Source: Escherichia coli
GTDB lineage: Bacteria > Pseudomonadota > Gammaproteobacteria > Enterobacterales > Enterobacteriaceae
Direction: 5' to 3' (one strand)
DNA length: 64,000 nucleotides
NCBI RefSeq assembly: GCF_016026235.1
Contig: NZ_CP065613.1
Shown: positions 29,888 through 41,208 of the stretch, piece by piece
Layout of the letters: every line of letters starts with the position of its first letter
How positions within the stretch are numbered: the first letter of the stretch is position 1
Translations under genes and position numbers: made by a program
Notes under the pieces: model-generated
What the model was told of the DNA's origin: nothing
The model's database searches: none
The model's input: only the letters and a program-made list of their open reading frames with translations

Positions 29888-30529
29888 ATGCCCCCTCGCG
29901 CCCTGTTACTGGTCGATTTACAAAATGATTTCTGTGCTGGTGGCGCGCTCGCCGTGCCGGAAGGTGACAGTACGGTGGATGTCGCTAACCGCCTGATTGA
30001 CTGGTGCCAGTCGCGCGGTGAAGCGGTTATCGCCAGTCAGGACTGGCACCCGGCGAATCACGGCAGTTTTGCCAGCCAGCACGGTGTAGAGCCTTATACG
30101 CCAGGCCAACTCGACGGTTTGCCACAAACCTTCTGGCCAGATCACTGTGTGCAGAACAGTGAAGGCGCACAATTACATCCGTTACTGAACCAAAAAGCGA
30201 TCGCAGCGGTGTTCCATAAAGGCGAAAATCCTTTAGTTGACAGTTACAGTGCCTTTTTTGATAACGGCCGTCGGCAGAAAACCTCTCTCGATGACTGGTT
30301 ACGCGATCATGAAATCGATGAATTGATCGTTATGGGCCTGGCTACTGACTATTGCGTGAAGTTTACCGTGCTGGACGCGTTACAGTTAGGTTATAAGGTA
30401 AACGTGATTACCGATGGTTGTCGTGGCGTGAATATCCAGCCCCAGGACAGTGCGCACGCGTTTATGGAGATGTCAGCAGCTGGGGCAACGCTATATACGC
30501 TGGCAGACTGGGAAGAGACACAGGGGTAA
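29888..30529 (+). CDS. pncA: Nicotinamidase / pyrazinamidase
   Basis: ORF 29870-30529; start at MPPRALLLVDLQNDFC gives 213 aa. Confidence 0.9.
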   Translation: MPPRALLLVDLQNDFCAGGALAVPEGDSTVDVANRLIDWCQSRGEAVIASQDWHPANHGSFASQHGVEPYTPGQLDGLPQTFWPDHCVQNSEGAQLHPLLNQKAIAAVFHKGENPLVDSYSAFFDNGRRQKTSLDDWLRDHEIDELIVMGLATDYCVKFTVLDALQLGYKVNVITDGCRGVNIQPQDSAHAFMEMSAAGATLYTLADWEETQG

Positions 30530-30538
30530 TTTTACGCT

Positions 30539-30569
30539 GGCCTACAATTCTGTACTGGCATTGTAGGCC
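30539..30569. repeat. Palindromic hairpin between convergent pncA and ydjE
   Basis: ggcctacaattctgtactggcattgtaggcc, perfect 11-bp arms; candidate bidirectional terminator. Confidence 0.5.
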
Positions 30570-30621
30570 AAATAAAACACGTCAGTGGCACATCTGGCAA
30601 TTGATGCCATCAACGAAAGAT

Positions 30622-31980
30622 TTAATTCACCTCAGAAATCTCTTCCAACGACACCTTCCGCGTTTCGATGCCAAAAATGGAGAGAACCAGCGCACAGAGC
30701 AATAACATGACACCAAGTACCATAAACACCGTGATCGACCCATAATGTGTTAATAATGCCGCAACGCCATAGGGCGTGAAGACTGCGACGATCCGTCCGA
30801 CGGCATTAACGAAACCCGAACCGCGCAGGCGTAAATGCGTTGGCCAAAGCTCCGGGATATAAACCGCCGACGCGAAGCAAACATACATGTATAAAAAGAA
30901 GATCATCACCAGGCCATAGATTAAAATCGCCCACTCTGTAGTCTGAATTGAATAGATATAGCCTAACACGGCAATAATAATAAGTAAGGTGGAGCCAAAT
31001 AACCGACGAGGAAAATGATCAATAATTAATGCCGCAATAAATATTCCTACCGGAGCGCCAATCATAATAACAGCGGTCATTAATATTGATTTATCGACAT
31101 CAATGCCGGAGTTAACAAATATGGTCGGTATCCATACGGTGATGGTATAAAGCGAAATGTTCATTGCAATTAAAACAGTAATCGCGACTAATGTACGTCG
31201 TAACATTTCACCTTTAAACAGGAGCCAGAAAGTACCCTTGATTACTTTAACCTTGCTGTTGCTCTGATACGAAGTAAGCGGGGGTAAACGAATACTCTTC
31301 TCTCTTTCAATTTGCTGCTCTACTTCACGAAGTTGGCTTTCTGCACCTGCGATTTGCCCTTTCCCTGCCAGCCATCGTGGCGACTCAATAAAGTATTTAC
31401 CTGAAAGAAACCAGGCTAACAGTATGCCAATACCACCCAGCAGAAACATTATCCGCCAACTAAAAAAAGCGATAACCACCACACCTATCGCCGCAGACAG
31501 CATGGGCGACCAGTTACCAACAAATGAGAGCCGCGCGGACCATTTTCCACGCACCGTCGCGGGGATAAACTCCGTAAATGAGGCATAGCCAACCATAATC
31601 AGCGCCCCCATTCCTGTTCCCATCAGGAAGCGAAAGAAGATGAGCCAGTACATATCAGGGACAAAAGCGGCCCCTGTTGCAGCAATACCGACGATGAGAA
31701 GATTTATGCGAAACGCCCTGCGCCGCCCAAAGTAATCACCGATGAACCCACCGGTAAGAGAGCCGATGAAATAACCAAACATTAATGCCGAGGTAAAGGC
31801 GGCATTGAGGAAATTATTTGACCATCCATTGCTTACCAGCTTTGCTAAGACGACATTACCGGAGTAACTCAAAAACCCTGTTAATAACAGACTAAAGCTT
31901 ATAATACCAAATATACGATAATGAAACCGGGCCAAAGGCAAGCGGTCCAGTCTTGCGCCAATTTGATCATATTGTTCCAT
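30622..31980 (-). CDS. ydjE: MFS-family transporter
   Basis: ORF 30622-32085; start at MEQYDQIGARLDR gives 452 aa; sugar-porter-like MFS motifs. Confidence 0.8.
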   Translation of the reverse strand: MEQYDQIGARLDRLPLARFHYRIFGIISFSLLLTGFLSYSGNVVLAKLVSNGWSNNFLNAAFTSALMFGYFIGSLTGGFIGDYFGRRRAFRINLLIVGIAATGAAFVPDMYWLIFFRFLMGTGMGALIMVGYASFTEFIPATVRGKWSARLSFVGNWSPMLSAAIGVVVIAFFSWRIMFLLGGIGILLAWFLSGKYFIESPRWLAGKGQIAGAESQLREVEQQIEREKSIRLPPLTSYQSNSKVKVIKGTFWLLFKGEMLRRTLVAITVLIAMNISLYTITVWIPTIFVNSGIDVDKSILMTAVIMIGAPVGIFIAALIIDHFPRRLFGSTLLIIIAVLGYIYSIQTTEWAILIYGLVMIFFLYMYVCFASAVYIPELWPTHLRLRGSGFVNAVGRIVAVFTPYGVAALLTHYGSITVFMVLGVMLLLCALVLSIFGIETRKVSLEEISEVN

Positions 31981-32097
31981 TGGGTGCCTCGGATTTGCTA
32001 AAAAAGGTAGCAATTGCGGCAAATTCACTTGCCGCATCTTTATCATCATTTTATATCCAGGCACAGGAACAAATAATATTGACAACGTGTGCTAAAA

Positions 32098-32856
32098 TTA
32101 CCACACCAGCTGGATATTATTGTCTTTGCAAAATGCTATCCACTCTGCACCCGGTGATTTATCAGTTATTATGTAATTAATATGACTAAAGTCAGCTAAC
32201 TGAACAAAAGCTTTGCGATCAAACTTAGAGTGATCAACCAATAACGCAACTTCTGTCGCCTGACGGATCATTGTCTTTTTGATTTCAGCTTCCGCTTCAT
32301 TAGAGTCCAGCGCGCCGCTGTTAATATCAAGACCTTTACAACTCATTACCATGATATCGACATGATAGCGGCTGATGATCTCTTTAGTAATTCTTCCTTG
32401 CAGTGAAAGTGTATTTTTGTTTAGTTCCCCACCCGTTGAAACGACTTTAATTTCTGACTGAGCCAGAACATGAATCGCTTCCGCCGAGTTGGTTAGCAAC
32501 GTCAGGTCACTACGGTCCTGTAACAATTTGAGCAATTCCATTACGGTACTACTGGAATCGGCTGCCATGGTGGTTTTATTGTCGATAAAGGGTAGTGCCT
32601 TGCGTGCAATAAGCTGCTTCTCTTCATAAAACGATGAAGCGCGCTTATAAAAATGGATATTCTCCGTCAACATCGCTGTATTTAAAACAGCACCACCATA
32701 GGTTCTGGTCAAAAAGCCTTCATCTTCCAGCTTCTCAAGATCGCGGCGAATGGTTTCTTCGGTTACCTGAAAAATCCCACTCAAATTTGAGACTGTCACC
32801 TTTTTATCGTTGGCAACCATTTGCTTAATTGCCTGAATCCTGTCTTTTGCCGCCAC
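32098..32856 (-). CDS. ydjF: DeoR-family transcriptional regulator
   Basis: 252-aa ORF with N-terminal HTH and DeoR C-terminal sugar-binding region. Confidence 0.82.
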   Translation of the reverse strand: MAAKDRIQAIKQMVANDKKVTVSNLSGIFQVTEETIRRDLEKLEDEGFLTRTYGGAVLNTAMLTENIHFYKRASSFYEEKQLIARKALPFIDNKTTMAADSSSTVMELLKLLQDRSDLTLLTNSAEAIHVLAQSEIKVVSTGGELNKNTLSLQGRITKEIISRYHVDIMVMSCKGLDINSGALDSNEAEAEIKKTMIRQATEVALLVDHSKFDRKAFVQLADFSHINYIITDKSPGAEWIAFCKDNNIQLVW

Positions 32857-32992
32857 GATTACACCCCTGTATCTTTTTACATCACATTAGCGCGATTATC
32901 GCATAACCGATGTTTACTTTCAAAATAACCTGTTTGAATCACAGATTTTCATCACGGTTTTCACAGAAACAGAGGTGAATCGTGTTGAGTAT

Positions 32993-33973
32993 TTAACGCT
33001 CCAGGGCCTCTGCCATTTCCCTCATCAATGTTGCGTCTGCATCCGATAAGTTGATATTCAGTGCCGCGACATTTTCGCGTACCTGTTGCGGTGCAGTAGC
33101 CCCACTAAGAATGGAGATTAAATCACTCTGTTTTAATATCCACGCCAGTGCCAGAGTGGGAATTGTGCACTGATAACGAGCACAAAGTGGCTGCCACTGT
33201 TCAAGCATATCAATCACTTTCAGCATGTTTTCACGCTGGAACCAGACTTTATTTGCCCGAGCGCCGCCCGGAACGTAATCACGAGTGATGGTGCCGGTCA
33301 ACAATCCCTGCTCTAGCGGGGAATAAACCTGAACCACAATGCCATTATCACGACATAGCGGCAGCAGTTCGTTTTCCATTGCCCGGTCGAGGATACTGTA
33401 TTTCGCCTGAATAATATCCAGTTCACCATATTGCAGATACTCGCGGATATGGTCGGCATCGACGTTAGCAGCGCCTATAGCGCGAATTTTCCCTTCAGCC
33501 TTTAACTCATTAAGCACTGCGACAGTTTCAGCGATCGGCGTATAAAATGGCGGCACCGACTGCCAGTGCGTCATGTAGATATCGATGTAATCAATACCCA
33601 GACGTTGCAAGCTGGCTTCTACCTCTTCGCGGATAGATTCCGGGGAAAGGTTTTTATACAACTGCCGATTGCCAACTTTGTTGAATAAACTTCCTTTTCG
33701 TTCCCAGACAATGCCGCATTTGGTTTCTACTACAACCTGTTCACGGGGCAGTTTTTTTAACGCCTGACCGACGATAACTTCACTATTGCCAAAGTTATAT
33801 CCTGGTGCAGTATCAATCAGGTTAATGCCGCAACGATGGGCTTCAAGAATCGTATCAATACATATTTGCCGATCGAGATCGCCATTCCATGCAGGACCGC
33901 CGCCAATGGCCCATGTCCCCAACCCCATTCGCGAAAGCGTAATATCCGTTGTGCCTAAAGGTATCTTTTTCAT
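32993..33973 (-). CDS. ydjG: Aldo-keto reductase
   Basis: 326-aa ORF, AKR family. Confidence 0.82.
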   Translation of the reverse strand: MKKIPLGTTDITLSRMGLGTWAIGGGPAWNGDLDRQICIDTILEAHRCGINLIDTAPGYNFGNSEVIVGQALKKLPREQVVVETKCGIVWERKGSLFNKVGNRQLYKNLSPESIREEVEASLQRLGIDYIDIYMTHWQSVPPFYTPIAETVAVLNELKAEGKIRAIGAANVDADHIREYLQYGELDIIQAKYSILDRAMENELLPLCRDNGIVVQVYSPLEQGLLTGTITRDYVPGGARANKVWFQRENMLKVIDMLEQWQPLCARYQCTIPTLALAWILKQSDLISILSGATAPQQVRENVAALNINLSDADATLMREMAEALER

Positions 33974-34895
33974 TTGCCTTCATTATCCTTCGTATTCTTC
34001 CAGCAATTGTTCGACCAGCTTTCTGTTTTTTACGCCGGTGGTGGCACCGACGCTTAGAACCGAGATAGCCGCCGTTGCATTGGCAAAGCGTGCGCATTCA
34101 CGCAGATTTTTGCCTTCTAACAGTGCCGCAATAAAACCTGAAGCAAAGTTATCACCCGCGCCAATGGTGTCGATGGCGGTTATTCCTGCGACCGCCGGCA
34201 CCTTCATCGTCATGTCACCACGCTTGATAAAGCAGCCGTCTTTACCCGTTTTAATCACCACCGTTTTTACGCCGCACGCAAGAAAGCAGTCAGCAATTTC
34301 ATCCAGTGTCTCTTTCCCGGTGAGTAATTTTGCCTCGGCATAATTAGGAAACAGATAATCGACATAACTCAATGCTTCGCAAATATCATCCAGCGTTTCA
34401 TTCAACCGCGGTTTAATCATATCGGCACAGATAATCATCTGCCGGGCTTTAGCTTGCGTAAAAATTTCTGTTAGCGTTTTACCATCCAATAGTGGACTGT
34501 TGAAAATACTGGCCAGTGATAATAATTTCGCCTGGGAAAACCGAGCAAAATCAACATCGTCAATATTCAATTTCCACAGACTGCCGTTACGGTTTGTGAC
34601 AAACGTCCGCTCGCCATCCTCCGTCACCAGTCCAACATTAATAGAGGTATCTATGTTGACGTCCTGCTTCAGGCTTTGAATATCAATATTCTCTTTGCGG
34701 CAATGGTCGAGAATAAACTGCCCTGCGGCATCTTTACCAATACGGCTCATTAATGCTGTACGATGGCCCAGACGAGAAATAATTGTTGCTTCATTTATTG
34801 CATCACCCCCGGTGGTCATTGCGATTCTTTCAAGAGGATAAGAATCCACATCAAAGATATTTTTACTGACCGGTTGCAATGGAATATCAACAATA

Positions 34896-34904
34896 GCGGC
34901 ACCT
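34896..34904. repeat. IS1 target-site duplication, left copy (GCGGCACCT)
   Basis: 9-bp direct repeat immediately flanking the IS1 terminus; identical to 35673-35681. Confidence 0.9.
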
Positions 34905-34919
34905 GGTAATGACTCCAAC

Positions 34920-35423
34920 TTACTGATAGTGTTTTATGTTCAGATAATGCCCGATGACCTTGTCATGCAGCTCCACCGATTTTGAGAACGACAGTGACTT
35001 CCGTCCCAGCCTTGCCAGATGTTGTCTCAGATTCAGATTATGTCGCTCAATGCGCTGAGTGTAACGCTTGCTGATAACGTGCAGCTTTCCCTTCAGGCGT
35101 GATTCATACAGCGGCCAGCCATCCGTCATCCATACCACGACCTCAAAGGCCGACAGCAGGCTCAGAAGACGCTCCAGTGTGGCCAGAGTGCGTTCACCGA
35201 AGACGTGCGCCACAACCGTCCTCCGTATCCTGTCATACGCGTAAAACAGCCAGCGCTGACGTGATTTAGCACCGACGTAGCCCCACTGTTCGTCCATTTC
35301 AGCGCAGACAATCACATCACTGCCCGGTTGTATGCGCGAGGTTACCGACTGCGGCCTGAGTTTTTTAAGTGACGTAAAACCGTGTTGAGGCCAACGCCCA
35401 TAATGCGTGCACTGGCGCGACAT
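34920..35423 (-). CDS. insB: IS1 InsB (transposase C-terminal part, expressed as InsAB' by -1 frameshift)
   Basis: 167-aa [19 protein letters not shown]...; overlaps insA in the -1 frame. Confidence 0.9.
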
Positions 35424-35617
35424 CCGACGCCATTCATGGCCATATCAATGATTTTCTGGTGCGTACCGGGCTGAGAGGCGGTGTAAGTGAACTGTAGTTG
35501 CCATGTTTTACGGCAATGAGAGCAGAGATAGCGCTGATGTCCGGCAGTGCTTTTGCCGTTACGCACCACGCCTTCAGTAGCGGAGCAGGAAGGACATCTG
35601 ATGGAAATGGAAGCCAC
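35342..35617 (-). CDS. insA: IS1 InsA (transposition inhibitor / N-terminal part of transposase)
   Basis: 91-aa [25 protein letters not shown]... with zinc-finger-like CxxC...CxxC. Confidence 0.92.
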
Positions 35618-35672
35618 GCAAGCACCTTAAAATCACCATCATACACTAAATCAGTAAGTTGGCAGCATTACC

Positions 35673-35681
35673 GCGGCACCT
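35673..35681. repeat. IS1 target-site duplication, right copy (GCGGCACCT)
   Basis: Identical to 34896-34904. Confidence 0.9.
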
Positions 35682-35711
35682 ATACAAATAACGTCGAGAT
35701 TATCCATATCA

Positions 35712-36548
35712 TTATTCCGCTTTGCCATCAGAACCGAACAGTTTAATTTTTTCCAATGCCCGTTCTTTTACAGCTTTACGTACTTCACGTTCTAAATGCA
35801 GGAAAGGCTGATCCTGGTTTTCTTTCACTGCGACCATTGCGGCCTGACAGAGCTCAGTATGGATGTTGATTTTCGCGATACCCAACGAAATTGCAGTTTT
35901 AATGTCGGCATCACTGATCCCCGATGCGCCATGCAAAACCAGCGGAACAGACACGGCATCGCGTACGCGTTTGACGACCTCAAAGTTCAATTGTGGCTCT
36001 GACGTATAAACCCCATGCTGGTTGCCGATGGCGACAGCCAATGAGTCACAGCCCGTACGTTCAACAAATTCAGCCGCCTGGTCAGGATCGGTATAGTGAT
36101 AGCCCGCCAGCGCTTCCTCATAAACGGTTTCATTACCGACATGCCCTAATTCCGCCTCTACCGGAATACCCAGCGGATGGAAGAAATCGACAGCCTCTTT
36201 GGTTAAGCGAATATTTTCTTCGAAATCAAATGCGGAAGCATCACGCATTAATGAATTCATACCATGAGTCCAGGCGTTATGAATAATCTCCATACTCCGA
36301 CCATGATCCCAATGAGTTATTACCGGCACAGTTGCTTTTCGTGCCATTGATACCATCATGTGAGAGAAATCTTCAAATGAGGTGTTGCCGACAAAACCTG
36401 TGCCAAAAGAAATAATAACCGGTGATTTCGCTTCTTCGGCTGCGTCGATAACGCCCATCAACATTTCTGCATTCCATACGTTAAAATGGGCAATTGCATA
36501 ATGTTTATTTGTGGCATCGTTTTCCCAATATCTGATATCTGCGAGCAT
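35712..36548 (-). CDS. ydjI: Class II (metal-dependent) aldolase
   Basis: 278-aa ORF, fructose/tagatose-bisphosphate aldolase family. Confidence 0.82.
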   Translation of the reverse strand: MLADIRYWENDATNKHYAIAHFNVWNAEMLMGVIDAAEEAKSPVIISFGTGFVGNTSFEDFSHMMVSMARKATVPVITHWDHGRSMEIIHNAWTHGMNSLMRDASAFDFEENIRLTKEAVDFFHPLGIPVEAELGHVGNETVYEEALAGYHYTDPDQAAEFVERTGCDSLAVAIGNQHGVYTSEPQLNFEVVKRVRDAVSVPLVLHGASGISDADIKTAISLGIAKINIHTELCQAAMVAVKENQDQPFLHLEREVRKAVKERALEKIKLFGSDGKAE

Positions 36549-36568
36549 GTTCTGTTCTCCCGTATTAA

Positions 36569-37612
36569 TTAATCGCTAATTTTAATAACGCCTTTAATAA
36601 TGTCGCGTTTGTTGTTAACCGACTCTTCAAATGCCTGTTGTACATCACGGTAATCGTAAATATGTGTCACCATCGATTTCACATCGAATCGCCCTGAAGA
36701 AATAGCTTCAATCGTGACCGGATAACGATTGGCATAGCGGAATACCGTCTGGATAGTGACTTCGCGATTGATTTTGAGGAAATTGATTGCCGAATCGCCG
36801 GGTACAGTACCAACAATCATAATTTTACCGCCGCGCATTACCAGATAAGGTGCCTGTTTAACGGTGACCGCAGAACCCGCTGTTTCGAAAACAATATCTG
36901 CGCCCATGTCTTCGGTAAATTGCTGACAGCGTGCAATAGTGTCTTCTTTTGCGCCGTTAATAACCACTGTCGCACCAAGCTGTTCCGCCATTGTCAGACG
37001 TTTTTCCAGCACATCAACGACGGCAATTTCCGTTGCTCCCAGGCATTTGCACGCTTGCAACGTCATCAAACCAATACAACCCGCTCCTAGAATAATTATC
37101 TTCTTACCCGGTTTAACATCTGCCAGCATCGCGGCATGCATCCCGACTGCGGCAGGCTCCACCAGCGCCCCTTCCATCGTGTCCATATTGTCGGGCAGTT
37201 TGTAAGTAAAGCTCTCCGGATGACACAGATAGTGCGTTAATGCGCCGCGGTAGTTGGGTTGTGTCGCCATAAAATCAACGTCCGGGCAGATGTTATATTT
37301 GCCTTCCAGACAGTAACGACAGTGACCGCAAGGAACGCCAGGTTCGATATTTACCCGATCCCCCGGTTTAAATTTGCGCACGCGGCTTCCCACAGCCACA
37401 ACCGTCCCGGCGCATTCATGACCCTGGCCAATTTCTTGATTTGGGTCTTTAGGCGGAATAAACGGACCTGATTCAAAACCATGTACATCTGAACCACAAA
37501 TACCGACATATTCTACTTTAATCAAAACTTCATCTTCTTTAGGCACTGGTATTTCTGCTGAAATAATTTTCATTGTGCCCGGCACCTGCAATATTGCTTT
37601 TGAATTTTTCAT
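36569..37612 (-). CDS. ydjJ: Zinc-dependent alcohol/polyol dehydrogenase
   Basis: 347-aa ORF with GHExxG and Cys-rich structural zinc site. Confidence 0.82.
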   Translation of the reverse strand: MKNSKAILQVPGTMKIISAEIPVPKEDEVLIKVEYVGICGSDVHGFESGPFIPPKDPNQEIGQGHECAGTVVAVGSRVRKFKPGDRVNIEPGVPCGHCRYCLEGKYNICPDVDFMATQPNYRGALTHYLCHPESFTYKLPDNMDTMEGALVEPAAVGMHAAMLADVKPGKKIIILGAGCIGLMTLQACKCLGATEIAVVDVLEKRLTMAEQLGATVVINGAKEDTIARCQQFTEDMGADIVFETAGSAVTVKQAPYLVMRGGKIMIVGTVPGDSAINFLKINREVTIQTVFRYANRYPVTIEAISSGRFDVKSMVTHIYDYRDVQQAFEESVNNKRDIIKGVIKISD

Positions 37613-37628
37613 TTTGAATCCACCCGTA

Positions 37629-39008
37629 TTATTTATTGGCTACTGCATCAATACTTAAACTTTCAACGGAGACACCTTTGGTTTCGATTCCAATGGTGGC
37701 GATAGCAATTGCGACAATAATTGAAACCGCCCCCAGAAGAATAAAGACTCCCGTAACGCCATAACTACTGAGCAGCACTGCAACGGCATAAGGTGCGGCA
37801 ATACCACTGATTCGCCCTACCGCATTCGCCAGACCGGAGCCACGGAGTTTGGCCTCTGTCGGCCAGATCTCAGGGACATACACTGCCGAGGCATAGCAAA
37901 CGTACATATAGACGAAAGTAATCAGGAAGAAACCAATCAACGTTATGAGCAACATGCTGGTTTGCAGTGAATAGATATATCCGAGCACCGCAATCAGGAT
38001 TAATAGCCCCACACCCATTGTTTTACGCGGAATTTTATCCATCACCAGCATGGCAATAAAAATGCCAAATGGCGCGCCAAACATACTCATGGTATTTAAA
38101 ACAATCGAGTCTTTTAAATTAATCCCCTGGGTCATGAATATCGTTGGCAACCAGTTAATTAGTGTGTACTGCACAACGTTCATGGCAATCAGCACACAAG
38201 AGCCTAATATCACGCGTTTCAGTAATACTCCTGTCAGTAAGGCTGAATACGGCACCGCTTGTGGCGTTTTACCGTCATCAGCAATAACCACGGGCGGCAA
38301 AGGTTTGCCCGTCTGGTGTATGACGCCTTCTTCTATACTCCGCATGACTTTCTCGGCTTCCTGATACCGTCCGCGCGATTCCAGCCAGCGCGGGGATTCA
38401 GGAAAGTAGCGCCAGGCCAGCGCCGTAGCGATAAGCGACAATATTGCAGGGATAAGCAGTTGTACCCGCCAGTTCCACTCTGCACTAATCAGCGGCGTGA
38501 GTCCCATCGCTATCAATGAACAGAGCGGATATGACCAGTTGCCAATAAAGGAAACCCGACTTGACCACGTTCCACGATTTCTACCGGGCATATATTCGGT
38601 GAAACCAGCAAACAGCGTAACCAGTAAAGCTCCCAGCCCAACTCCCATCACAAAACGGCAGGCAATAAGGAAATCCATATTCGGTGAGAAAGCACCGACA
38701 ACCATCGAGGCAATATGAATGGCCTCATAGAGGATGAACGCATTTCTGCGACCGGTTTTGTCGCCAATGATGCCGCCCACCAGCGCACCGAGAAACATTC
38801 CGGCGGTCGTGATTGCTGAGAATGTGGCTGTGGTGGAATTATCTGTCCAGCCCAACGCTTTCAGCTGCGCGAGGATCAAGCCACCAACGGCATTACTCCA
38901 GCAGACAAGCAAGCCAAACGCGACGATGGCAAACATTGACGAATGCCAGCGGCAATCCGGTAAGCGATCCAGCCGTGCACCACAATGCGGTTTTGTTATC
39001 TGTTCCAT
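37629..39008 (-). CDS. ydjK: MFS sugar transporter
   Basis: 459-aa hydrophobic ORF, sugar-porter family. Confidence 0.82.
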   Translation of the reverse strand: MEQITKPHCGARLDRLPDCRWHSSMFAIVAFGLLVCWSNAVGGLILAQLKALGWTDNSTTATFSAITTAGMFLGALVGGIIGDKTGRRNAFILYEAIHIASMVVGAFSPNMDFLIACRFVMGVGLGALLVTLFAGFTEYMPGRNRGTWSSRVSFIGNWSYPLCSLIAMGLTPLISAEWNWRVQLLIPAILSLIATALAWRYFPESPRWLESRGRYQEAEKVMRSIEEGVIHQTGKPLPPVVIADDGKTPQAVPYSALLTGVLLKRVILGSCVLIAMNVVQYTLINWLPTIFMTQGINLKDSIVLNTMSMFGAPFGIFIAMLVMDKIPRKTMGVGLLILIAVLGYIYSLQTSMLLITLIGFFLITFVYMYVCYASAVYVPEIWPTEAKLRGSGLANAVGRISGIAAPYAVAVLLSSYGVTGVFILLGAVSIIVAIAIATIGIETKGVSVESLSIDAVANK

Positions 39009-39034
39009 GCGATAACGTTCCTTCAGGAAAGTTG

Positions 39035-40111
39035 TTATTCATCAAAGTCGTAAGTCATGATCACTTTGATTGCGGTTTTATCGACCATCGCATCAAACCC
39101 TTCGCGCCATTGCGACAGGCCGATACGATGCGTGATCATCGGTTTGACTTTGATAGCGCCGCTGACTAATAGCCTGATAGCGTTACGCCATGAGGTGGAG
39201 TCATAGGCCATATGCCCAATGATGCTTTTGTTCCAGGCGGTAATGTCATTAATCGAGAAATCAAGAGGTTTGAAGCCCATTCCAACGCGTACCACTTCCC
39301 CGTTCGGGCGGAGCATTTCGATGGCTTGTTTCAGTGCGATATTGGCACCGGAGCATTCAATCACCAGTCCCAGATTGTCTTTTCCACAAATTTGCTGGCA
39401 GCGCGCCACCACATCTTCGGTAGAACCATTTACTACTGCCGTCGCACCCAGTTCTTTTGCAACCGGGAAGCGGACCGCCACATCTTCTTGCAGACCAACG
39501 ACGACGATATTTACCGCCCCCATAATTCGCGCCATTTGTACGGAGAACAGCCCGAGTGGGCCAGTGCCGATGACGACCACATCCTGACCAGGAAGGAATT
39601 TCGATTGCTGCGCGATGGATTTGTAGGCATTACAGATAGGGTCAAGTACGGCTGCGTCCTCATAATCAACACCATCAGGGATTTCCCACAACGCATGACG
39701 ATGAATTTTGAGAATTTCACCAGGAACCAGACAATATTTGGAAAAACCACCGCCCCAGGTATTATTATCCAGACCAAGGTTTACTTTTTCTGTACAACAC
39801 AGAAAATCACCTTGTTCACAGGCCGGACAAACGCCGCAAACGTGACCGCTGTTATCCGATACGACGCGTTGCCCCACTTTCCAGTCTTTGACTTTTTCAC
39901 CAACCTGCGCAATACAACCTGCGAACTCATGGCCGCGGATAGAGTTAAACTCATCAGAACCGCTATCGACATTGTAGTGCTTCATGTCTGCGCCGCAGAT
40001 TGCCGCGGCTTTAATTTCAATCACTACATCTTCCGGGCCACACATGGGTTGTGGGACATCAATCATCTTGTAGCCGCCAAAGGCTTTGCCAAACCGAGCC
40101 AGTGCTTTCAT
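39035..40111 (-). CDS. ydjL: Zinc-dependent dehydrogenase (threonine/sorbitol dehydrogenase-like)
   Basis: 358-aa ORF; first gene of the minus-strand ydjLKJIHG cluster. Confidence 0.82.
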   Translation of the reverse strand: MKALARFGKAFGGYKMIDVPQPMCGPEDVVIEIKAAAICGADMKHYNVDSGSDEFNSIRGHEFAGCIAQVGEKVKDWKVGQRVVSDNSGHVCGVCPACEQGDFLCCTEKVNLGLDNNTWGGGFSKYCLVPGEILKIHRHALWEIPDGVDYEDAAVLDPICNAYKSIAQQSKFLPGQDVVVIGTGPLGLFSVQMARIMGAVNIVVVGLQEDVAVRFPVAKELGATAVVNGSTEDVVARCQQICGKDNLGLVIECSGANIALKQAIEMLRPNGEVVRVGMGFKPLDFSINDITAWNKSIIGHMAYDSTSWRNAIRLLVSGAIKVKPMITHRIGLSQWREGFDAMVDKTAIKVIMTYDFDE

Positions 40112-40187
40112 TGCGTCATCCTCTGTGTTTTGTTTTGCTTAGATGGTCATCATACTTACCCACATGATTTTTGAGGTCAACATTAAA

Positions 40188-40222
40188 TCTGTAAAACACA
40201 GATAATGATCTGCGTTTTACAA
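40188..40222. promoter_or_regulatory. Near-perfect palindrome in the ydjL upstream region (candidate operator)
   Basis: tctgtaaaacacagat-aatg-atctgcgttttacaa; arms aaaacAcagat / atctgCgtttt, about 80 bp upstream of the ydjL start. Confidence 0.4.
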
Positions 40223-40480
40223 CTCAGATCACAATTACGCAGAAAATGGCTGGTTCTGTTACAGGTTGATGGAAGGCTGAACGCAAAAGGAGCAAATTTG
40301 AGAGGGATTACCGGCCAAATAGGTCTGAGACTTAAGTTCAGGAGAAGTCATTCAAGCGTGAACGCGACGGCAAGAGACCGGGCTGGGGCTTTGCCTGGTC
40401 GTGACGAGATAATTGAGATGAGTCGTGGGGTTATTGTTGGCTATCCCCTTTATAACCGCGGCAAAAAGGGGACAAACCAC

Positions 40481-40753
40481 TTACTTAAACATGGCAATAG
40501 GCTTTGCTGAGATACCAAAATCTTCTTTTAACTGTTGTTTGCTCTTCATGACCATCTGACCATTTGTGTCAATTGTCATATGCTGTGCTTCGGTATTATT
40601 GCGGGCTTGCCACAGCATCACCAGTTGCAGGCAGTTCTCTTTTTGTTCCTCGGTCAACGCAACGCCATCAGGCCATTTCCCCAGTTCAACGGCGGTCGAC
40701 AAACGCTGGTATACCTCAGGCGTCATGCTGTTGATAATGTCATCAAGATTCAT
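40481..40753 (-). CDS. yeaC: DUF1315 protein YeaC
   Basis: ORF 40481-40798; start at MNLDDIINSMTPEVYQ gives 90 aa. Confidence 0.75.
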   Translation of the reverse strand: MNLDDIINSMTPEVYQRLSTAVELGKWPDGVALTEEQKENCLQLVMLWQARNNTEAQHMTIDTNGQMVMKSKQQLKEDFGISAKPIAMFK

Positions 40754-40794
40754 AATTTTTCCGCTCCTGTGGAATAAGTTGCTGAATCGTTTTT

Positions 40795-41208
40795 TCAACC
40801 GTTGATTTCTTCGCCGTTTTCGCCATCAGTGAAGCGTAAAGAAGCAGAGTTAACACAATAACGTTCGCCTGTTGGTTGCGGCCCGTCGGGAAAGACATGC
40901 CCCAGATGGGCATCACAGTTACCGCAACGAATTTCTATGCGCTGCATTCCATGTGACAAGTCTTTGATATAACGAATGGATTCTTCACTCACCGGTTCGT
41001 AGAAACTGGGCCAGCCACAGCCGGAATCATACTTGGTTTCGGAATGAAACAGCGGGGCATCGCAGATCAAACAGTGATATACGCCGTCACGCTTGTTATG
41101 CAGTAAACGACCCGTAAATGGCGGTTCTGTCCCATGATTCTGCGTCACGTAAAACTGCATCTCGGACAAATTTTTTTTCAGTTCTTCTGCCGAAGGTTTA
41201 TTAGCCAT
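40795..41208 (-). CDS. msrB: Peptide methionine sulfoxide reductase MsrB
   Basis: ORF 40795-41238; start at [12 protein letters not shown] gives 137 aa; two CxxC zinc motifs. Confidence 0.9.

Follow-up and report, generated by a model that had tools for sequence, protein, structure and literature searches.

The window analysed here is a 64,000-nucleotide stretch of an Escherichia coli genome (NCBI RefSeq assembly GCF_016026235.1, contig NZ_CP065613.1), whose minus strand carries, between positions 30622 and 40111, eight open reading frames (ORFs) that all share one orientation. The region corresponds to ydjLKJIHGFE (b1776-b1769), the locus for sugar-acid catabolism already known from E. coli, here with an IS1 element in the kinase gene ydjH and, upstream of the first gene, ydjL, with a near-perfect palindrome that a preliminary description of this DNA had put forward as a possible operator for the DeoR-type regulator YdjF. 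The regulatory nature of the palindrome is upheld by conservation, but it is merely the inner part of two boxes, and the unit that would be recognised is a 17-bp dyad which recurs at the ydjF promoter and within ydjL. On sequence grounds, YdjF is the best candidate for the protein that binds these sites.

The ydj cluster and its distribution

The gene families given in the preliminary description for the eight co-oriented genes agree with the ORFs and with NCBIfam. ydjJ and ydjL encode Zn-dependent medium-chain dehydrogenases, ydjE and ydjK major facilitator superfamily (MFS) transporters and ydjH a PfkB/ribokinase-family kinase, while YdjI matches the class II ketose-bisphosphate aldolase model TIGR00167 (324 bits) and YdjG the equivalog NF049922 (626 bits), in both cases with scores exceeding the cut-off. 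YdjI also matches the structure deposited as 'YdjI aldolase' (PDB 6OFU, E = 2e-187), and YdjH, once repaired in silico, matches 'sugar kinase ydjH' (PDB 3H49/3IN1, E = 6e-205). The flanks are those of E. coli, with pncA on one side and yeaC-msrB-gapA on the other; between yeaC and pncA the gene order ydjL-K-J-I-H-G-F-E is complete and the proteins are 98-100% identical to their E. coli orthologues. The closest complete genome is that of E. coli FDAARGOS_943, which is 99.9% identical over ydjI-msrB (5.6 kb) and has different IS1 insertions. Two further mechanical ORFs lie on the plus strand, one antisense to ydjL (39212-40174, 320 aa) and one across the operators (40205-40510, 101 aa), and neither has support as a gene.

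The substrate of the pathway had been called poorly defined. In part this no longer holds, as the RefSeq record of K-12 now names YdjH an L-glycero-L-galacto-octuluronate kinase and YdjI the corresponding 1-phosphate aldolase. This sugar acid is, however, reported to have no natural abundance (PMC9602453).

The ydjI-L segment is present in about four-fifths of the complete E. coli genomes (4263 of 5426). We retrieved orthologous loci with YdjL as the query and mapped the eight ydj proteins onto them. Clusters with the same gene order were found in Escherichia, Citrobacter, Klebsiella, Raoultella, Yokenella, Budvicia, Symbiopectobacterium, Enterobacillus and one Serratia, and also in Lachnospiraceae, Eubacteriaceae, Ruminococcus, Anaerococcus, Megamonas, Enterococcus and one Atopobiaceae. 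Gut Firmicutes, Megamonas and the Atopobiaceae carry the whole ydjL(K)JIHGF cluster. Identity between the non-enteric proteins and those of E. coli is 76-85% for YdjL and 71-82% for YdjI, 41-56% for YdjF and mostly 51-58% for YdjK (maximum 75%); the unusually high identity of YdjL and YdjI across phyla suggests that the pathway has spread horizontally among gut bacteria. Sequence 95-100% identical to ydjL of E. coli also appears on short contigs (241-545 bp) from Terrisporobacter, Prolixibacteraceae and Limosilactobacillus assemblies. The two from Terrisporobacter have a coverage below 1x, and all of them are most likely E. coli contamination.

Paired boxes upstream of ydjL and ydjF

The palindrome is found 77-110 bp ahead of the ydjL start codon (ATG). 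Its presence is confirmed, although the ends first given for it (40188-40222) are 2 nt and 1 nt too wide: the arms, at 40190-40203 and 40208-40221, have 14 nt each, are complementary at 13 of 14 positions and are separated by a 4-nt spacer. Using arms of at least 14 nt, at most one mismatch and a spacer of up to 10 nt as thresholds, we found no other inverted repeat of such quality in the window, for which first-order Markov shuffles expect 0.3.

When the sequences upstream of ydjL from 23 Enterobacterales are aligned, five footprints appear, given here in the orientation of the operon. The first is TTTGTGATCT, in which TGTGA.C is invariant, the second and third are GTTGTGAAAtGCAGATC and ATCTGTGTTTTAAAGATTT, and the last two are TGTTGAC, which contains the -35 element, and TAAGTAT, which contains the -10 element 17 bp downstream of it. 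In Serratia and Enterobacillus the third footprint is a perfect palindrome, AAATCTGTGTTTCACAGATTT. Boxes O1 and O2 of the window (Table 1) lie in mirrored orientation, and their inner parts form the palindrome, which is near-perfect in Escherichia only; in most other genera the arms are Watson-Crick symmetric at just 10 of 14 positions. The 32-bp symmetry is therefore largely a trait of Escherichia, and what is conserved is the 17-bp box. Judged from these alignments, the conserved unit is the dyad ATCTGTG-N3-CACAGAT, placed in tandem 20-21 bp apart, and not the 32-bp palindrome.

The predicted promoter P_ydjL is conserved as TTGAC-17-AAnTAT in the same 23 Enterobacterales. An alternative ydjL promoter that the scan had flagged, TTTACA-17-AAAAAT, was rejected, as its -10 element is not conserved in Citrobacter and Klebsiella. 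When the ydjL-yeaC spacer of the strain was compared with that of K-12, 24 of 369 positions differed, none of them within 40148-40253, the segment that holds the -10 and -35 elements, O1, O2 and TGTGATC. In the yeaC-proximal part of the spacer (40254-40480) 22 of 227 positions differ from K-12, a divergence of about 10% that is far above the usual level in E. coli.

Published work shows a ydjL promoter fragment to be silent in culture but active in the mouse gut (PMC6561318). In LB medium, transcripts entering ydjL are stopped by Rho inside the ORF, at MG1655 position 1861188 (window position 39967); this Rho-dependent termination region is strong and lies about 145 nt past the ATG, and the ydjL '5' untranslated region (UTR)' construct of the same study starts at a transcription start site (TSS) inside yeaC, at window positions 40568-40588 (bioRxiv 10.1101/2020.07.18.207399). 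Transcription that arrives from upstream therefore runs through the operators and is ended by Rho within ydjL.

We derived a consensus 17-mer, ATCTGTGAAACACAGAT, from other genera (it is perfect in Serratia and Enterobacillus) and scanned the window with it, allowing up to 4 mismatches. Four sites only were returned, starting at 40187 (O1), 40208 (O2), 32930 (F1) and 39788 (O_int). All are inside the ydj locus and three of the four lie in its two promoter regions. The preliminary description had proposed a search for further copies of the palindrome half-site, and the scan with the full 17-mer revealed two, at 32930-32946 and 39788-39804, that had been missed. Sites for Cra, for GalR/LacI-type regulators and for PurR were rejected by eye as identities of the box, whose half-site and spacing differ from their consensus sequences.

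Box F1 belongs to the promoter of ydjF. A scan of the ydjG-ydjF spacer gave P_ydjF hexamers that match the consensus at 10 of 12 positions, plus the TG extension, and the same hexamers, TTGAAA and GATAAT, have been described as a constitutive RpoD promoter by genomic SELEX (systematic evolution of ligands by exponential enrichment; PMC3946193). The gap between F1 and the ydjF -35 element equals that between O1 and the ydjL -35 element, 6 bp in both cases.

The intragenic box O_int was picked by the motif scan and not by conservation. In a comparison of ydjL from 24 Enterobacterales, using windows of 6 codons, the O_int window had the lowest entropy at third codon positions in the gene (0.20 bits versus a mean of 1.02), ranking 1-2 of 353 windows. 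The 399 bp between O_int and O1 correspond to 38 helical turns.

The boxes also occur beyond the Enterobacterales. Non-enteric ydjL upstream regions, in Firmicutes and Actinobacteria, contain one to three boxes 20-21 bp apart, such as ATCTTTGAAACAGAAAA, ATCTGCGAAACAGACAA, ATCTGTAAAACAGAAAT and, the best of them, TTCTGTGAAACACAGAA in Atopobiaceae. Measured against AT-matched 160-bp windows of the same loci, 7 of 12 non-enteric loci reach p<0.05, and combining the p values by Fisher's method gives 6e-5. In Firmicutes, 7-8 bp separate the end of the proximal box from a TTGAAA or TTGACT -35 element, compared with 6 bp in enterics, and tandem boxes 20-21 bp apart are present in at least 7 lineages. 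All of the box-bearing non-enteric clusters carry a ydjF homologue, which is 41-56% identical to E. coli YdjF. The N-termini of the YdjF proteins align with a nearly invariant VTEETIRRDLEKLE across phyla; TIRRDL is a family-wide signature of DeoR proteins, so this invariance says little about a shared specificity.

Upstream of P_ydjF, just past the ydjG stop codon, lies one arm (ACCUCUGUUUCU) of a candidate helix that would cover the Shine-Dalgarno (SD) sequence of ydjF, the SD region being GGAAACAGAGGU in most species. RNAalifold keeps its 12 pairs in 17 species, with little covariation. Because of its position, this arm is present solely on read-through mRNA from P_ydjL, and the predicted helix could prevent over-translation of YdjF when the operon is induced. 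The ydjF leader (~32864-32885) has been reported as an 'unconventional target' of LexA by chromatin immunoprecipitation (ChIP)-chip, with a degenerate LexA-like site, CCCTGTATCTTTTTACATCA (PMC3542263). An Rfam search of 30400-40900 returned nothing beyond a chance sub-threshold miRNA match.

Table 1. Coordinates of the ydj genes, the IS1 element and the predicted regulatory features in the window (SD, Shine-Dalgarno; TSS, transcription start site)
Feature	Position	Strand	Description
ydjE	30622-31980	-	MFS transporter; 452 aa per K-12 annotation; mechanical ORF reaches 32085
ydjF	32098-32856	-	DeoR/GlpR-family regulator with HTH_DeoR and DeoRC domains; GTG start
Candidate anti-SD helix	32863-32976	-	ACCUCUGUUUCU (32965-32976) pairs with AGAUACAGGGGU (32863-32874, covers the ydjF SD)
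P_ydjF	32895-32923	-	-35 TTGAAA (32918-32923), 17-bp spacer, TG-extended -10 GATAAT (32895-32900)
Box F1	32930-32946	-	ATCTGTGATTCAAACAG; 6 bp upstream of the ydjF -35; nearly invariant across Enterobacterales (17 species)
Box F2	32952-32968	-	TTCTGTGAAAACCGTGA; 22 bp upstream of F1; left half-site alone strong; 7 mismatches to consensus, weak
ydjG	32993-33973	-	Aldo-keto reductase (NADH-dependent methylglyoxal reductase equivalog)
ydjH 3' fragment	33983-34904	-	Target-duplication copy through stop
IS1	34905-35672	-	768 bp; insA 35342-35617 and insB' 34920-35423, both in operon orientation
ydjH 5' fragment	35673-35707	-	ATG at 35707; codons 1-11 plus 2 nt
ydjI	35712-36548	-	Class II aldolase; PDB 6OFU match
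ydjJ	36569-37612	-	Zn-dependent dehydrogenase
ydjK	37629-39008	-	MFS transporter
ydjL	39035-40111	-	Zn-dependent dehydrogenase; first gene of the operon
O_int	39788-39804	.	TTCTGTGTTGTACAGAA; within ydjL (codons 102-107); centre-to-centre distance to O1 399 bp
Predicted P_ydjL	40152-40180	-	-35 TTGACC (40175-40180), 17-bp spacer, -10 AAGTAT (40152-40157); predicted TSS ~40145
O1	40187-40203	.	ATCTGTAAAACACAGAT; 1 mismatch to consensus; centre ~-50; 6 bp upstream of the -35
Palindrome	40190-40221	.	TGTAAAACACAGAT-AATG-ATCTGCGTTTTACA; inner parts of O1 and O2
O2	40208-40224	.	ATCTGCGTTTTACAACT; 4 mismatches; centre ~-71; 21 bp from O1
TGTGATC	40227-40233	-	TGTGA and final C invariant, T at least 90% conserved (23 Enterobacterales)

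YdjF as candidate repressor and other readings

ydjF is the sole regulator gene in the cluster. The domains PF08220 (HTH_DeoR) and PF00455 (DeoRC) were detected on the ydjF product of one of the retrieved loci (L004), which is 100% identical to the YdjF of the window. In NCBIfam, YdjF gives full-length matches to the GlpR, AgaR, SrlR, FucR and DeoR models, all below the equivalog cut-offs; it is therefore a member of the family and none of those named proteins. The locus also has the operator layout of DeoR/GlpR-type systems, with repeated, conserved dyads at the promoter of the operon (O1, O2) and at that of the regulator (F1), in tandem at 20-22 bp.

We favour, with a probability of roughly 55%, a repressor-controlled ydj operon in which YdjF binds the 17-bp boxes, represses, and is released by a phosphorylated intermediate, a model drawn from the sequence and from analogy with related systems. 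ydjLKJIHG would be read as one operon from the sigma-70 promoter P_ydjL, and ydjF, probably together with ydjE, from the constitutive P_ydjF. YdjF would bind the ATCTGTG-N3-CACAGAT dyads O1, O2, F1 and O_int, and F1 plus the half-box F2 at P_ydjF would confer autoregulation on ydjF. An oligomeric YdjF may occupy the boxes cooperatively, possibly looping O1/O2 to O_int. Such repression would keep P_ydjL off in laboratory media. By analogy with DeoR, GlpR, UlaR, FucR and others, induction would occur when the DeoRC domain binds the phosphorylated intermediate and YdjF is released; the product of YdjH would be the obvious candidate. Repression is favoured because the -35 elements are good and P_ydjF is factor-independent.

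Several points weigh against this model. The boxes lie upstream of the -35 elements and not over the core promoters, a position as typical of activators as of repressors. The ydjL TSS is a predicted one, and the sole published TSS from which a ydjL construct was built is located in yeaC. As the consensus was spotted by eye from O1 orthologues, O1 itself is not independent evidence, and F2, like a possible O3, matches weakly. Four of the 12 non-enteric loci are without a convincing box, and de novo 6-mer enrichment in the non-enteric ydjL upstream regions is modest (AAAACA, GAAATC, ATCTTT and TCTTTG, best z = 4.4), so that enrichment alone would not define the motif. In the searchable literature, with curated databases such as RegPrecise and RegulonDB outside the search, there were no YdjF binding data and no description of its operator; no ChIP-exo (ChIP with exonuclease digestion) or SELEX data for YdjF were found in the literature, and YdjF has been listed as uncharacterised (PMC4797297).

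A more extended form of the model is a YdjF system with several operators that is shared across phyla, in which tandem boxes are held at a fixed distance from the -35 element, an operator embedded in ydjL closes a loop of about 400 bp and the anti-SD helix limits translation of ydjF. Box and gene order recur together in gut Enterobacterales, Lachnospiraceae, Eubacteriaceae, Anaerococcus, Megamonas and Atopobiaceae. We consider this extended form tentative, and on balance doubtful. No solved structure of YdjF was found, and the K-12 RefSeq record contains no regulatory feature at the locus. The operator model is thus apparently new, for a locus that is already known and an arrangement that is standard for the DeoR type.

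Alternatively, YdjF could bind the same boxes as an activator in the manner of FucR, contacting RNA polymerase from about -50/-71 to assist a promoter whose -10 element, AAGTAT, is weak, and also activate its own gene. Activators typically show positioning as strict as that of the proximal box, which keeps 6-8 bp upstream of the -35 element at two promoters and in different phyla. The -10 element of ydjL matches the consensus at 3 of 6 positions only, and the FucR model is among the NCBIfam matches of YdjF (1e-40). We nevertheless regard activation as unlikely. Members of the DeoR family are mostly repressors, and the intragenic box suits repression by looping or roadblock better. Both promoters have a good -35 element (TTGACC and TTGAAA), and P_ydjF was selected in vitro by RNA polymerase holoenzyme alone, so that it needs no activator (PMC3946193).

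Still less probable, in our view, is that another factor, such as CRP, binds the boxes or part of the region while YdjF acts elsewhere or not at all. The most invariant element of the region, TGTGA.C at 40227-40233, is an exact CRP half-site; the half-site of the YdjF box itself contains TGTGA, and genomic SELEX lists ydjF, not ydjL, among predicted CRP targets (PMC3105977). The candidate 22-mer, centred at about -80.5 from the predicted TSS, has a perfect first half, but its second half matches at 2 of 5 positions only (1 of 5 in most genera). The TGTG-N3-CACA spacing of the dyad differs from the TGTGA-N6-TCACA of CRP, and the motif also occurs in Firmicutes and Actinobacteria without E. coli-type CRP control, always beside a ydjF homologue. 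TGTGATC may be a CRP-like half-site or a further YdjF half-site; CRP bound there would be compatible with binding of YdjF to the boxes, and the two are not exclusive.

The palindrome might instead act as an RNA hairpin, a terminator or attenuator that insulates ydjL from read-through out of msrB-yeaC or from the yeaC TSS. A terminator scan flags it (15 pairs, tail ATTTAATGTT), its fold has -18.4 kcal/mol (z = -3.2), and the TSS inside yeaC used for the ydjL 5' UTR construct means that it can be transcribed. However, just 4 of the 15 pairs are G-C, the tail ATTTAATGTT is no U-tract, 4 of 14 positions are non-Watson-Crick in most genera, and there is no covariation, with 413 of 500 column shuffles pairing equally well. 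Term-seq is without a ydjL 3' end, termination there being Rho-dependent and inside the ORF (bioRxiv 10.1101/2020.07.18.207399). Moreover, it is the half-site sequences, and not the pairing, that recur at ydjF and in other phyla. We rejected a Rho-independent terminator, for which a G+C-rich stem, a U-tract and maintained pairing are lacking, and consider any hairpin function very improbable. Finally, a chance or neutral origin of the palindrome, against which a single occurrence is not decisive at the frequency seen in the shuffles, is effectively refuted by the conservation data, namely the footprinting across 23 species, the absence of any polymorphism there, while the rest of the spacer is 9% divergent, and the recurrence of the motif at ydjF, inside ydjL and in other phyla.

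The ydj cluster is widespread in E. coli, is found in the same order in many gut Firmicutes and has a promoter that switches on specifically in the mouse gut, and yet its substrate and its regulator are uncharacterised. The repressor model, with a defined box, positions, two promoters and an intragenic site, makes YdjF testable and could provide a route to the inducer, and hence to the substrate. If the extended, multi-operator form is true, it is tempting to speculate that YdjF and its box could serve as a biosensor handle for the gut-derived substrate of a widely shared pathway.

The IS1 insertion and comparison with known systems

An IS1 inside ydjH had been reported in the preliminary description, and this is borne out in full. 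The element has 768 bp, inverted-repeat ends GGTAATGACTCC and GGCAGCATTACC (GGTAATG...), ORFs of 91 and 167 aa and a 9-bp target duplication, GCGGCACCT, at 34896-34904 and 35673-35681, as is characteristic of the IS1 family; copies 100% identical to it, annotated as IS1 family transposase, occur in many E. coli genomes. Its insertion point follows base 2 of codon 12 of ydjH and falls within the conserved GAA motif at the N-terminus, and ydjH is consequently split in a cluster that is not intact in this genome. Excision in silico of the IS1 and one copy of the repeat restores an intact ydjH of 315 aa, so the IS1 is the only lesion of the gene, which suggests that the insertion is recent. A 311-aa mechanical ORF of the ydjH remainder starts at an in-frame TTG (34918) inside the end of the IS1.

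From the sequence, the kinase is destroyed and the ydj pathway is predicted to be dead in this strain. IS1 insertions with polar effects are known from the classic gal and lac cases. A promoter scan found no strong outward promoter in the IS1 end that faces the ydjH remainder; ydjG begins 9 bp downstream of ydjH, and neither inspection of the sequence nor the scan revealed a promoter of its own. By analogy with those cases, the IS1 should be polar on the rest of ydjH and on ydjG and leave ydjF unaffected, and ydjE too: ydjF, and probably ydjE, would escape polarity because ydjF keeps its own promoter. The earlier proposal that the IS1 cuts the operon between ydjI and ydjG thus stands for the unit ydjLKJI / H'G, but ydjF, with its own sigma-70 promoter, is outside the cut unit. 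If the kinase product is the inducer, the operon would in addition be locked in the uninduced state, and the pathway of this strain is probably uninducible as well as dead.

The same 9-bp target, GCGGCACCT, holds an IS1 in E. coli TUM1857 (90.9% identical, same orientation) and in E. coli DSM 101139 (93.4% identical, opposite orientation), at 1767-2552 of locus L002 and 1747-2532 of locus L003, respectively. Comparison of the three sequences indicates that the ydjH site is a recurrent IS1 target, hit in three independent events by three IS1 variants. RefSeq shows a seemingly intact 314-aa 'ydjH sugar kinase' in TUM1857 and DSM 101139 (L002 854-1798; L003 834-1778), whose start codon is inside the IS1 end, and the disruption is therefore hidden in the annotation of both strains; the in-frame TTG at 34918 is the equivalent start in the window. 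Other E. coli and Shigella-like genomes have independent IS1 insertions at the end of ydjJ, in ydjK and in the ydjF/ydjE spacer, with several in one locus; one ydjK insertion is at identical coordinates in PSS-10 and FORC_031. The ydj cluster has thus been hit repeatedly in IS1-rich strains.

Compared with the ydj cluster of K-12, that of the strain has the same genes, order, orientation and flanks and an identical promoter/operator region, and differs in ydjH, which is intact in K-12 and carries the IS1 in codon 12 here. The insertion resembles the classic IS1 insertions in gal and lac, being likewise 768 bp with a 9-bp duplication and located near the start of a promoter-distal gene in a sugar operon. 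The ydjH element is ordinary in this respect, and its target differs in being a recurrent site of three IS1 variants.

Among regulatory systems, the closest counterparts are those of the DeoR/GlpR-family repressors GlpR, DeoR, UlaR, AgaR and SrlR. Like these, YdjF combines HTH_DeoR and DeoRC domains and is encoded in a catabolic cluster, and the ydj locus likewise has multiple TGT...ACA-type dyads, in tandem at about two helical turns, as well as an additional site within a structural gene, spaced suitably for looping, for which precedents are GlpR at glpD and the distant operators of DeoR. In contrast, the ydj boxes, with their ATCTGTG half-site and 17-bp dyad, are unlike the sites of DeoR (TGTTAGAA) and GlpR (TGTTCGAT-type), the promoter-proximal boxes are all upstream of the -35 element instead of over the core promoter, and the NCBIfam models of GlpR, AgaR and SrlR score YdjF below their equivalog cut-offs. 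FucR, of the same family, is the DeoR-type precedent for activation from upstream sites, and activates the L-fucose regulon in response to a phosphorylated ketose, fuculose-1-phosphate. Its model scores YdjF at 137.7 bits against a cut-off of 259, and the ydj locus departs from it in the good -35 elements of its promoters and in the factor-independence of P_ydjF.

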